A stretch of DNA of 64,000 bases, from NCBI GenBank assembly GCA_017654855.1, contig CM030337.1:3286001-3350000 (forward strand). The letters are read 5' to 3'. This stretch comes from Podospora anserina. Lineage: Eukaryota. Below, in pieces: positions 58,171 to 61,561 of this stretch (positions are counted from its first letter, which is position 1; each line of letters begins with the position of its first letter). The notes below the pieces were generated by a model. The model saw only the letters and a list, made by a program, of their open reading frames with translations. It was not told the DNA's origin and ran no database searches. The position numbers and the translations under genes are program-made.

Positions 58171-58777
58171 CTAAGATAATCTAGCAGTGGGTTTTGGGCT
58201 GTACCAGCTCCTCCACATGAAATTGACACCATTACCCTTCTCAAAGTTCCAGTTTGCAAGGCGATTGTCGTTGGGTTTGCCCATATCATCATCCACCCAG
58301 AACCCGACAGCCCAGAGCCTCGCATGATCTTTGCCAATCACAACATCCTCTAGTTTGTCCCAATCGTCTAGCAGACCTCTGATAAATTCAGTGGTGTTCT
58401 GAGTGGGAGTCTTGCACTTGAACTCGAAAAGGTGCCAGGGCTGAGTTGGACCAGCGTTACCATAGATGTTCAAATCCACACGCCTCAGGTCATTGTAGAC
58501 GAACGTCTCGCGTCTCAGCCCGGCGCCTGTGTTATATCCTCGCAGATCAGCTCAAGTTCGATCTCAGAGTCATAAGACATGAAATCAATTTCATCGTACC
58601 GTTTAGTTGCACAGCTAGACGGTATCCCAAATCAGCTTGCAACCATGCTTCCCAACCATATCCGAATTGATGAATGCGTGAGACTTTCTGACTGTTCTCT
58701 TTCACCCAACCCATAATGATCTTTTTGATGGGTTCTGGCTTGTCCGGGCTGAAGTAGGCTGCCTGCATGGAAGACAT
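58171..58777 (-). CDS. 177-aa putative PD-(D/E)XK restriction-endonuclease-like protein; intron 58527-58599
   Basis: A GTACGA..GCTGAT..CAG intron fuses ORFs 58547-58777 and 58171-58479 in frame, giving GWEAWLQADL, RRETFVY, RVDL, LFEFKC and DWDKL. Confidence 0.65.
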
Positions 58778-60085
58778 GGTGAAGCTGGGCTGCTTTGAGA
58801 CAGACTTTCAATAAAAGGTTGAATGTGTGTGTGATGATGACGAACTTGGATCTTTCGACCTTGGATGATTGCAGATATCTTTAGGCATGTAGAGGGCAGC
58901 ACTCAGGCTCAGGTTCTTATTCTCGTGGAATGAGATGGAGCCGAATGCTTGATCCAGTGTGAACGACTCCGCCAAACGGCAGCTTGATCGTCAACCATTC
59001 CCGATAAAGCATAGAAGAAATCACCTGGACCAAAAAAGAAGTTCATTTCCGCCCAGGAATACATTGCACATCCCTTGCTTGACCGAGAGCGATAACGTCC
59101 GATGACCTCGCAATGAGTTCTAGCTCAGCTCCATTGTGGGCACGAAGTGTGTGTGGGGATTCCGTCATGTTCAATGTTGCTCCGGCGGTTAAAACCGAAC
59201 CTTTCCAAACTTGTGATGTCTGAATGGATGTGAAAGAACTTCAATAGTCATCTTTAGTCATTCTCACAGACCATTCATCATTCCAAGTATTGAAATGGCG
59301 CAGACATCCAAATTCGGTAGGTTTCATCGCTCTGACTTTTCAGCTGGTGATATGTATGCAGGAACCTCAATTGAGCGGCTACCGGGGTTTCTATTGGATT
59401 TCAGCTGGCTGAAAGGTTACTCGCGAAACACGCGGAGGATCGGTCGCGAATTTTGACGTGATAGTCTAGACTCCTATATTCCGTACGACGTAATCGGCTG
59501 AAGACTTGAAGCGCGGTAAAAGTGGAAACTTCGACATTTCATCACGGAGATTGACGAGGCTCTTTGAGCACCGAAGATGGATGTGATGTGATCAGTTCAT
59601 CTTAGCAATCGGGGTTCTCCTATCTCCGACACCACCTGGTCTGAAATTAAACTAAAGTCGACATGCAGTCACAGTTCGACAGAACTTGGCGGGTCTGATC
59701 TGAGGTGTTATGTGATTTCTCACACTAGTTCTCCTTGAAAGCCTCAACCAGCCAGCCATCTGAGTCTAATTACACAGTGATGATTTCCACGCTCAACTGA
59801 CCCCTTCAGAGTGAAAGGTAGAGGCTGTTACCGCCCTAATCGTCGGTCTCTGAGATTGTGGCATGCGGGCAGAGCGGTAAAGCCGATCAATGTCACATGC
59901 AGAGAAATCCAAACGGGAGGGGACTTCAGGCTCCCTCCAGGCCCATAGATCACATAGAACAACGAGCCCATTCTGAATCCGTATTGATCACAGTTGTCAA
60001 CTAGATAATGAATTACTACAGAACATAATCGGAAGCGTCTGAAAAATCAGTACAAGCAGAAAAAAAGAAAACAGTTGCCCAAAGC

Positions 60086-61561
60086 TCACAGCTTCGCCTT
60101 TTCCTGGCCACCTTCAGCTTCGGTGTCGTCGTACTTAATAGACATGAACTTCCCAGGGTAGTACTTGGCAGCCCACATCTGCGCCAGCATCTTCTGATCA
60201 ATATCCTTCAGGTAGTAGTTGATGGGAACGCCGGAGTCTCCCTCGGAGGCTTTCTTCAGATAGTCCTCCAGCGCCGTCATCATCGAGTTGACGTCCAGGA
60301 CTTTGTTCTTCTCCCCATCGATGACCGCCAACGCGCTCAGCGAGGACTCAATAGCCTTGCCTTGCATCTCGGAGGCCTGTCCACTCGTTCGCGAAGCCTC
60401 GGCCATGGATTGCACCGTGGACTGCTCTGATGAGGTGGCGTTCTGGATGGCGGCGACGGCTGCCATGTTGGCGCTTGGGTCAAAATCGGCAAACTTCTCG
60501 GCCGTCTTTGAGACCAAGTTGGCAACCATCGAGGGAATCACGCCCATCGTCAGGACTGTCACGTGAGACTGGACGTTCTGCTGACTGAGGAGGTTCTTGA
60601 CGTCGCTGGCAAACTTGGCGTTGACGCCTACTTTACCCTCAGCTCTGGCAAACCAGGCACCCGTGTCCATGGTGCGCTGCATGAACATGGCCGCGGCCTC
60701 CATGGTCTCAGAGGCAGAGGTCTGCGTGGAGTTGAGAATGTGGACCATGCCGATGAAGCTCGATCCAAAGGTGGTGCCGGAGATGATGGAGAATTTCTCC
60801 TTGTCTTCTTGGCTCTCGTTCATGGCACACTTCATCATGCTGCTGCCGCTCGTAGGATCCAGCTTCTTGCCGGGGTAGAGATGGTTCCACACCTTGATGG
60901 CCTTGTCGACGTGCATCACGAAAGGGGCCACGATCGATGCGTTCTTGTGCGTGCAGCTCACAGACAGCACGAGGGTACCCTCGATGCTGTGCGATTTCAC
61001 TTGCCGGCTGACCTGACTCGAAGCTGCGGTGCCGATCTTCATGGACTGGTCGGTGCCAAAGACGCCGCTGACGGCGCCCGACACGTACGAGGCGATCTGG
61101 GCGCTGTAGGCAGACGAGTTCTGCGAGTTTGAGTCGAAGGAGAAATACTGAACGTCCATGTTCATGGTGTCGGCGGCAAGTGGCATTGTCTTGATCTCGC
61201 TGCGCAGGTAGTCGACAGGGCTTTCGATCTGCTTGTGAACCGAATGTATCTTCTGACGCAGTTGCTGGATCTGAGGCTCGGCCGCCATTCTGGCAGCTGC
61301 ATACGTGACCGCGGCCTTCTCCACGGCGTCGTTCAGCTTCTTCAGCTCCTCGTCCAGAGCATCAGTCTTGATGCCAAGGTTTCTGAGTTCGGTCTTGGTC
61401 ATCGTCAGACCTCTCTTGGACGAGATGAGAGAGTTGAGAGCATCGTGAGCGGCGTCGACAGGGGCTTGCAACTTTGAGATGGCTTCGACATTCGCCAGTG
61501 CCTCCTCGCTCACCACGCTCATCAACACCAGACTCGGGTCGTAGGGTATGGAGCTAGGCAT
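60086..61561 (-). CDS. Intronless 491-aa protein: N-terminal coiled coil plus candidate MACPF/CDC-like pore-forming domain
   Basis: Long ORF with strong C/G-ending codon bias. Motifs ISGTTFGSSFIGMV and GVPINYYLKDI; two Ser/Ala/Gly-rich segments between beta-strand-like stretches. The gene itself is solid; the fold call is inference. Confidence 0.75.
   Translation of the reverse strand: MPSSIPYDPSLVLMSVVSEEALANVEAISKLQAPVDAAHDALNSLISSKRGLTMTKTELRNLGIKTDALDEELKKLNDAVEKAAVTYAAARMAAEPQIQQLRQKIHSVHKQIESPVDYLRSEIKTMPLAADTMNMDVQYFSFDSNSQNSSAYSAQIASYVSGAVSGVFGTDQSMKIGTAASSQVSRQVKSHSIEGTLVLSVSCTHKNASIVAPFVMHVDKAIKVWNHLYPGKKLDPTSGSSMMKCAMNESQEDKEKFSIISGTTFGSSFIGMVHILNSTQTSASETMEAAAMFMQRTMDTGAWFARAEGKVGVNAKFASDVKNLLSQQNVQSHVTVLTMGVIPSMVANLVSKTAEKFADFDPSANMAAVAAIQNATSSEQSTVQSMAEASRTSGQASEMQGKAIESSLSALAVIDGEKNKVLDVNSMMTALEDYLKKASEGDSGVPINYYLKDIDQKMLAQMWAAKYYPGKFMSIKYDDTEAEGGQEKAKL

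Follow-up and report, generated by a model that had tools for sequence, protein, structure and literature searches.

A PD-(D/E)XK-like gene and its neighbour in Podospora anserina: probably two independent genes rather than a conserved module

We analysed a 64,000-nucleotide stretch of Podospora anserina contig CM030337.1 (the window, to which all coordinates refer unless a locus is named), which contains two co-oriented minus-strand genes, here called gene 1 and gene 2. An earlier note on this DNA had proposed that they form a two-gene module, with a pore former of the membrane attack complex/perforin or cholesterol-dependent cytolysin (MACPF/CDC) type next to a PD-(D/E)XK-like nuclease. Its description of two intact genes about 1.3 kb apart holds, as 1308 bp separate the gene 1 stop codon from the gene 2 ATG and both genes are transcribed. 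We read them as two independent genes that came to lie side by side through a local 2.5-kb insertion or deletion in a segmental duplication, and not as a conserved module (rough probability 0.55). The features concerned are the following.

60086–61561, minus strand: gene 1 coding sequence (PODANS_0_20), an intronless ATG-to-stop open reading frame (ORF) of 491 aa, with no joint in the transcript contigs
58600–58777, minus strand: gene 2 exon 1, with the ATG at 58777 and 59 codons plus 1 base; 100% tblastn match to residues 1–60 of the orthologue P0123, and covered by RNA contigs
58527–58599, minus strand: gene 2 intron, 73 nt, GT..AG, with the joint 58525/58599 (cut +1) in runs X15, X16 and X19
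58171–58526, minus strand: gene 2 exon 2 including the stop codon (58171–58173), carrying R65/E66, D77, E94-x-K96 and D114
57552–60081, no strand: 2530-bp segment that holds all of gene 2 with its flanks, starts a few bases past the gene 1 stop and is skipped in a paralogous copy

The two genes give rise to separate mRNAs. Gene 1, identical (100%) in a protein search to PODANS_0_20 of P. anserina S mat+, is represented by unspliced contigs of 1.64–1.77 kb in three RNA-type runs (59978–61746, 59988–61701 and 59979–61616). Transcript contigs of gene 2 span approximately 58079–58869, and a poly-T loose end at 58079 in run X16 marks its poly(A) site on the minus strand. No contig bridges 58870–59977 in any of the three runs. 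None of the runs listed is recorded as RNA; X15, X16 and X19 were taken as RNA from the splice joint and the poly(A) trace, and the broader labelling of X15–X20 as RNA is a guess. Runs X21–X24 carry next to none of the sampled words, which is no evidence of silence, just as the missing RNA cover at 56468–57871 and 59042–59977 is not evidence of absence.

Gene 2 comprises two exons at 58171–58777 on the minus strand and encodes 177 aa. Its splice joint occurs in contigs of all three RNA-type runs, which come from three studies, and is absent from the DNA-type run X10. The orthologue P0123 (QC762_000025) of P. pseudocomata has the same exon structure and matches the window at 100% over residues 1–60 and at 98.3% over residues 60–177. 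The ORF at 58171–58479 that had been taken for gene 2 covers only part of exon 2. The earlier observation that neither protein has a signal peptide agrees with a hydropathy check, its only test here: mean Kyte-Doolittle values over 19-residue windows peak at 1.42 for gene 1 and 0.36 for gene 2, so that no window reaches the threshold of 1.6, neither N-terminus is signal-like, and no stretch of either protein looks transmembrane.

A Logan-derived protein of 118 aa that is 77% identical to exon 2 (P0125) was considered as a gene 2 copy mutated by repeat-induced point mutation (RIP) and rejected. It differs from exon 2 at 25 of 110 aligned residues, and all differences are explained by C-to-T changes on the coding strand; its Q codons are unchanged, and a Q stands where the natural stop would be. 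By its sequence, P0125 looks as if it came from a library with C-to-T conversion (bisulfite type) and was called under a code in which the stop is reassigned. No second gene 2 copy of at least 80% likeness was found in run X10.

The surroundings of gene 1 exist in a second copy. In run X10, window 56258–57551 and the region from 60082 to about 62800 recur at roughly 10% divergence. One record of that run (record 2; 10,873 nt) aligns in patches to 56258–57551, jumps from 57551 to 60082 and continues into gene 1; because this contig skips 57552–60081, the paralogous gene 1 copy lacks gene 2. The interval 57638–59977 is covered by a single X10 contig. The skipped-segment copy is presumably the locus of PODANS_5_10810, the gene 1 paralogue with 91% identity in the protein search. 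The 2530-bp segment was either inserted at the window locus or deleted at the paralogous one. Its ends show no terminal inverted or direct repeats and no target-site duplication, and the segment was rejected as a mobile element on the lack of repeats at its ends. RIP between the two copies was likewise rejected, since 131 transitions versus 110 transversions are not RIP-like. When amino-acid changes were polarised with four outgroups, 27 were assigned to the branch of PODANS_0_20 and 7 to that of PODANS_5_10810, with 6 ambiguous; the gene 1 copy beside gene 2 is thus the faster-evolving one.

We found no support for the proposed pairing of the two genes in a module, and part of the evidence speaks against it. 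In the gene-neighbourhood comparison of homologues, tblastn detected a gene 1 relative in none of the 18 fetched loci that encode gene 2 relatives (L001–L018; one fungal, 17 bacterial or metagenomic). Separate searches returned 597 matches for gene 1 and 47 relatives for gene 2. From the separate transcripts, the paralogous locus without gene 2, the 0/18 loci and the unlike size and spread of the two families, we therefore conclude against a conserved module, and the claim of a cell-death module loses most of its value. The presence/absence comparison did not help that claim either: all 14 DNA-type runs contain 98–99% of the sampled words, so that no polymorphism was seen, a weak result as the list comprises holders only. 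Nothing on either gene was found in the literature searches made; papers that mention both MACPF and Podospora were judged, by their titles and the opening lines of their abstracts, to concern other subjects than this family.

Under the preferred reading of two independent genes, an insertion or deletion of 2.5 kb inside the segmental duplication would have put gene 2 beside gene 1. Gene 1 would be one of two recent paralogues, whose product starts with a coiled-coil hairpin and continues into a beta/alpha core that contains amphipathic segments rich in Ser, Thr and Ala. Gene 2 would encode a small, cytosolic, stand-alone protein of PD-(D/E)XK fold in which the motif residues E43, R65/E66, D77, E94-x-K96 and D114 are all intact. 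Several points weigh against this reading. Besides the paralogous locus, the linkage negative rests on 17 bacterial loci and a single contig from a fungus, and this contig (L001) offers only 1465 bp upstream of its gene 2 relative, so that a gene 1 relative may lie further upstream. Moreover, both genes are present in the three RNA-type runs, which is compatible with co-regulation, and the language-model neighbours of gene 1 described below are mostly MACPF proteins (23/30) with some CDC, so that a pore former beside a nuclease is possible.

To characterise gene 2, we built an alignment of P0123 with 36 of its 47 relatives (A2); we left out 11, namely two fragments from Podospora, a piece of 99 aa and eight proteins that were longer or matched only partially. 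The AlphaFold model obtained with A2 is confident (predicted local distance difference test, pLDDT, 90.1; predicted TM-score, pTM, 0.87) and places helices at 15–37 and 43–57, strands at 62–68, 75–81 and 89–97, a helix at 104–122 and a strand at 129–137, which gives a predicted alpha-beta-beta-beta-alpha-beta core. Across the 37 sequences, W45 and E94 are invariant, and G41, E43, Q47, R65, E66, D77, K96 and D114 are conserved at 90% or more. In the model, E43 stands at a helix start, D77 on strand 2 and E94-x-K96 on strand 3, followed by a helix and strand 4, the classical arrangement of PD-(D/E)XK proteins; E43 also belongs to a family motif, G-W-E-x-W-x-Q.

Structural and profile comparisons point the same way. 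The top Foldseek match in the Protein Data Bank (PDB) is 3ijm_A, a 'restriction endonuclease-like fold superfamily protein' (E = 0.028, probability 0.82, TM 0.34/0.40), and about half of the matches listed are restriction-endonuclease-like, including tRNA-splicing endonucleases, HincII, D212, YaeQ, SfsA, DrdV, BsaXI and BstEII. The A2 profile aligns the D..ExK of gene 2 with the D..EVK of SfsA (4dap) at E = 1.1. Sub-threshold Pfam matches were obtained for the relative P0144 (PDDEXK_4, E = 1.4e-3; PDDEXK_9, E = 2.9e-3) and, among the 37 aligned members, to HSDR_N_2 in four and to DUF2726, SfsA, PDDEXK_9, Uma2 and RE_TdeIII in one each. The confident predicted fold, the conserved E..D..ExK and these weak but agreeing matches support the earlier assignment of gene 2 as PD-(D/E)XK-like in fold and motif, as far as a predicted model can. 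Set against it are the absence of any Foldseek match in the PDB at E ≤ 1e-3, the GNAT acetyltransferases that make up most of the other matches listed, the fact that every Pfam match to a nuclease family stays under threshold, and the use of P0123, which differs from the window protein at 2 of 177 residues, as both the modelled protein and the phmmer query.

Gene 2 thus resembles the PD-(D/E)XK superfamily (SfsA 4dap, the Spirosoma protein 3ijm) in its predicted core and in its motif residues (an acidic one that opens the helix preceding strand 1, a D in strand 2 and E-x-K in strand 3), and its best structural and profile matches belong there. It differs in matching no member significantly, in an extra N-terminal helix and the family-specific G-W-E-x-W-x-Q, and in its very small size, as the protein stands alone and has no domain for DNA recognition. 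We consider it probable that gene 2 is a metal-dependent nuclease. Spore killing by the Spok proteins of Podospora depends on a nuclease-like domain; each Spok protein is one large polypeptide that also contains a kinase-like domain for resistance. Gene 2 shares the organism with them, whereas its product has 177 aa and no other domain; the comparison is with this general description of Spok only.

The gene 2 family is unannotated and occurs sparsely in fungi and bacteria. A word-index search returned three proteins only, all from the Podospora complex or artefacts. An exhaustive phmmer search with P0123 against 1.84 billion representatives gave 47 relatives at E ≤ 1e-3, of which 8 reach E ≤ 1e-10, mostly of 155–200 aa. 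Of these 47, 20 clusters were looked up and a source was named for four: Cosmosporella (Hypocreales), the lichen fungus Mycoblastus, Clavulina (Basidiomycota) and the bacterium Caulobacter. Because no model in Pfam, NCBIfam or PADLOC covers gene 2, with the bacterial relatives included in the NCBIfam and PADLOC scans, the family is undescribed in these databases. Gene 2 would thereby define an unannotated PD-(D/E)XK-like family common to fungi and bacteria, and the link of its bacterial branch to R-body loci, set out below, is the most useful by-product of this analysis.

Genomic neighbourhoods were sampled in two ways. Metagenome contigs of the Joint Genome Institute (JGI), scanned with a smaller alignment (A3), yielded two loci, L001 and L002, and a scan of one genome per prokaryotic species yielded 16 further loci with gene 2 relatives. 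L001, a 10-kb fungal-looking contig, encodes the closest non-Podospora relative (P0126, 53% identical; 1466–1969, plus strand). Beside it, at L001:3871–9364, lie a STAND/NLR-type gene (NPHP3_N, GPIID_WHD and a DUF7708 N-terminal exon) at a distance of 2.5 kb and an ORF with a SesA domain at 7 kb. By analogy, this neighbourhood may be of the kind seen at fungal incompatibility loci, and it is a single case.

On L002, a GC-rich bacterial contig, two gene 2 relatives bracket a RebB 'Killing trait' cluster at 2373–8378 (PF11747, E = 5e-31 and 4e-15). Besides L002, RebB lies within 10 kb of the gene 2 relative in 8 of the 16 genome loci, namely seven Caulobacterales loci with RebB directly upstream and one Bradyrhizobium locus. 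These Reb-linked loci, of Caulobacterales and Bradyrhizobium type, are as follows.

L003, L005–L008 and L010, approximately 7300–10490
L004, 68–1266
L017, 640–10645

As a control, one even sample of 401 Alphaproteobacteria was searched with both profiles. Of the genomes sampled, 14 contain RebB, with 13 scoring above the cut-off, and nothing rests on the fourteenth (G250). The gene 2 family was detected in three genomes, all three RebB-positive, against a base rate of 13–14/401. In two of the three, the gene 2 relative and RebB share a contig, 0.4 kb and 6.3 kb apart, and the third assembly is too fragmented. In Alphaproteobacteria, and only there, gene 2 relatives thus recurrently lie next to RebB, and in the sample they occurred in Reb-carrying genomes only. 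The association has clear limits: only 3 of the 13–14 RebB-positive Alphaproteobacteria carry the family, RebB is near the gene 2 relative at none of the 8 other loci (Bacteroidota, Symploca, Treponema and a 'Thermoplasmatota' metagenome-assembled genome), and among five Bacteroidota genomes two have RebB, in neither case near the gene 2 relative.

Ever since the work on the Paramecium killer trait, it has been asked which toxin does the killing by R-bodies, and a conserved nuclease-like neighbour of reb genes is a cheap, testable candidate for it. Raymann et al. 2013 (PMC3583457) describe R-bodies as a post-ingestion killing device whose partners are unidentified, and suggest that hypothetical proteins conserved beside reb loci may be regulators or the missing toxin. 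The bacterial gene 2 relatives likewise sit at the edges of RebB clusters, as do the candidate reb-locus partners HP1.x/HP2.x of that account. They differ from these in that the sizes given there (about 360, 110–120, 170 for a distant Reb homologue, 60–80 and 205–220 aa; PMC3583457) offer no obvious fit to a nuclease-like protein of about 160 aa.

A further hint comes from P0159 (699 aa, Logan), in which a jacalin-like lectin domain (359–480) precedes a gene 2-like domain (527–665), an architecture reminiscent, by analogy, of lectin-targeted toxins. The Reb association and this fusion are circumstantial hints at an antagonistic role. In view of the alphaproteobacterial members that accompany R-body loci and of the relative with a jacalin lectin domain, we think that the family may serve a toxin-like or antagonistic use rather than a housekeeping one, at somewhat less than even odds. 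We know of no Reb genes in fungi.

In Bacteroidota and Treponema, the gene 2 relative follows one or more small ORFs (L011:6963–9921, L014:8767–9976 and L018:9264–9944), contexts that differ from reb loci. The small ORFs of L011 look like paralogues of one another, and at L014 a phage-tail-collar-like ORF lies downstream. No Pfam family was found in the scanned ORFs L011:6963–8060, L011:9091–9489, L014:8767–9435 and L018:9264–9941.

Gene 1, in turn, belongs to a large, conserved ascomycete family without an annotated domain. The protein search gave 597 matches at E ≤ 1e-3. Among the 120 matches listed, all named ones are fungal and nearly all belong to Pezizomycotina, at 51–91% identity, and the only Pfam domain is one coiled-coil match. 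Predicted secondary structure divides the protein into an N-terminal coiled-coil hairpin (about 19–108), a beta/alpha core (about 130–345) and a conserved C-terminus. A quick maximum-likelihood tree of 40 sequences (alignment A1) recovered two deep, well-supported clades, inside each of which taxonomy is not followed. Aureobasidium groups with Nemania and the Podospora pair with Xylariales and Dactylonectria; more broadly, Dothideomycetes group with Xylariales, and Sordariales with Xylariales and Hypocreales at 80–86% identity. Judged on these sequences, the family is multi-copy and patchy, and its tree would reflect either many old paralogues with differential loss or horizontal transfer between fungi. 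The sole longer, fused form, P0178 (975 aa), matches residues 1–392 and has no Pfam match in the remainder; it was set aside as probably a merged gene model. Within the gene 1 coding sequence, about 35–40 nt at 61315–61355 are matched at less than 90% by unrelated high-depth contigs in all four runs; these matches have loose ends on both sides and probably reflect a short shared sequence without consequence.

For the earlier assignment of gene 1 to MACPF/CDC, all sequence and profile tests came out negative, and language-model neighbours alone point towards it. Gene 1 has no MACPF or CDC match in Pfam (PF01823, Thiol_cytolysin) even at E ≤ 1, and among the Pfam families listed at E ≤ 10, MACPF/CDC appears for 0 of 40 family members. 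Searches against PDB chains, by sequence and by the A1 profile, gave coiled-coil noise only, and scans of NCBIfam and PADLOC gave nothing significant. When A1 was aligned by hhalign with 10 bacterial MACPF domains, cut from genomes found with PF01823, the probability was 0.09, a weak test as both alignments are shallow (effective number of sequences, Neff, 2.4 and 3.5). The AlphaFold model, built on the 40 sequences of A1, is poor (pLDDT 56.8). Its only confident part is the coiled-coil hairpin at 19–108 (pLDDT 75–93 at residues 20–100), residues 280–423 fall below 50, and Foldseek against the PDB returned coiled-coil proteins only, none at E ≤ 1e-3. Between about 130 and 280, the model is of moderate confidence and shows the order strand, two helices, strand, helices, beta-hairpin; in this low-confidence model, the element order would be compatible with the bent sheet and two helical clusters (TMH1, TMH2) of MACPF/CDC proteins. 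The structure check thus leaves a compatible order of elements and a model too poor to judge.

The positive side comes from language-model neighbours. In a language-model atlas, the best named cluster for the whole protein is MACPF, with a score of 0.90 at rank 29. For residues 110–345, MACPF accounts for 23 of the 30 named matches (0.91, with about 150 of 256 features shared), and thiol-cytolysin (CDC) clusters also occur at 0.88–0.89. By the tool's calibration, such scores can reflect either distant relationship or chance. In gene 1, the alternation of hydrophobic residues is strongest at 304–322, in a segment that could form a beta-hairpin. The MACPF signature reads Y/W-G-T/S-H-F/Y-x6-G-G. 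Gene 1 has 'FGSSFIGMVH' at 265–274, in which G266, S267, F269 and H274 are invariant and which no GG follows, and its FGSSF may partially resemble the first half of that signature.

Compared with MACPF/CDC proteins such as perforin, pleurotolysin B and perfringolysin, gene 1 has an order of strand, two helices, strand, hairpin and helices that, together with Ser/Thr/Ala-rich amphipathic segments, would be compatible with their two helical clusters, which refold into hairpins; the language-model neighbours of residues 110–345 are of this type. It differs in the lack of a Pfam match and of a profile match to solved structures, in the hhalign probability, and in a family-wide long N-terminal coiled coil and conserved C-terminal domain that are atypical of MACPF. 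A MACPF/CDC-like core with conditional membrane insertion in the MACPF/CDC manner is our best available guess for gene 1, and a tentative one. A good structure would decide whether a perforin-like family is widespread in filamentous fungi and has gone unrecognised there.

These results bear on what the neighbouring genes might do together. In the earlier proposal, gene 1 would form pores in the MACPF/CDC manner, with the nuclease of gene 2 as its cargo or partner, and the two would act in regulated cell death, allorecognition or selfish killing. Adjacency, co-orientation and expression in the same three RNA-type runs fit this idea, as do a nuclease-like gene 2, the MACPF/CDC neighbours of the gene 1 core and the STAND/NLR-type genes (NPHP3_N, DUF7708, SesA) beside the gene 2 relative on L001. 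We nevertheless hold it to be quite improbable, with separate mRNAs and no bridging contig, a paralogous gene 1 locus that lacks gene 2, and 0/18 loci with the pair. Furthermore, the gene 1 family keeps 50–86% identity across classes, unlike fast-evolving allorecognition genes; no polymorphism was seen in the 14 DNA-type runs (weak, holders only); and Pfam, PDB profile and hhalign give no MACPF signal. A wider version is a long shot: the gene 2 family would consist of nuclease toxins made for delivery, which evolution has more than once combined with a device that breaches membranes, namely R-bodies in Alphaproteobacteria and, in Podospora, a protein resembling MACPF/CDC. If true, the family would be a candidate for the toxin that underlies the 'killer trait' of R-bodies, and the two Podospora genes would represent pore-assisted nuclease delivery in a eukaryote.

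The genes could also share a theme without forming a pair, as independent cytoplasmic defence proteins that act on grazers or predators after ingestion, one damaging membranes and the other a nuclease toxin. Cytoplasmic fungal toxins against fungivores typically have no signal peptide, and by hydropathy neither protein has one. The jacalin-lectin fusion in one gene 2 relative and the patchy, multi-copy gene 1 family, with its tree off taxonomy, are in keeping with this, and so are the bacterial gene 2 relatives at loci of R-bodies, a post-ingestion killing device (PMC3583457). We regard it as unlikely: the toxicity of both proteins is inferred, gene 1 is so strongly conserved that a role in the cell suggests itself, only one relative has the lectin fusion and the Reb linkage is confined to Alphaproteobacteria. 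The association of bacterial gene 2 relatives with R-bodies lends some colour to a looser reading that gives both proteins a part in antagonism. At the opposite end, gene 1 might be a conserved coiled-coil protein of filamentous ascomycetes, cytoplasmic or organelle-associated and no pore former, and gene 2 a PD-(D/E)XK protein that has a housekeeping role or binds DNA/RNA without catalysis. The coiled-coil hairpin as the only confident part of the gene 1 model, database matches that are all coiled-coil noise, and high conservation across Pezizomycotina argue for this, yet gene 2 is sparse and patchy (47 representatives in 1.84 billion) with conserved catalytic-type residues, and gene 1 has consistently MACPF/CDC language-model neighbours and an alternating hydrophobic pattern at 304–322 in a possible beta-hairpin segment. 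We find this alternative doubtful.

The wider surroundings were described earlier as a gene-poor stretch of about 12 kb between TmpA-like and PEX11-like genes. No long convincing ORF lies between about 52.5 and 58 kb of the window, which agrees with a gene-poor stretch that was only partly checked. On the flanks, the 'TmpA-like' label was not confirmed, as it refers to two ORF pieces at 48944–50819 with no Pfam match, whereas the PEX11-like neighbour stands.

62977–63795, plus strand: PEX11-like gene (PF05648, E = 2.1e-8)

Farther out, an ORF at 44510–45466 on the minus strand contains a full palmitoyl-protein thioesterase domain (PF02089, E = 1.8e-82), an ordinary chromosomal context.

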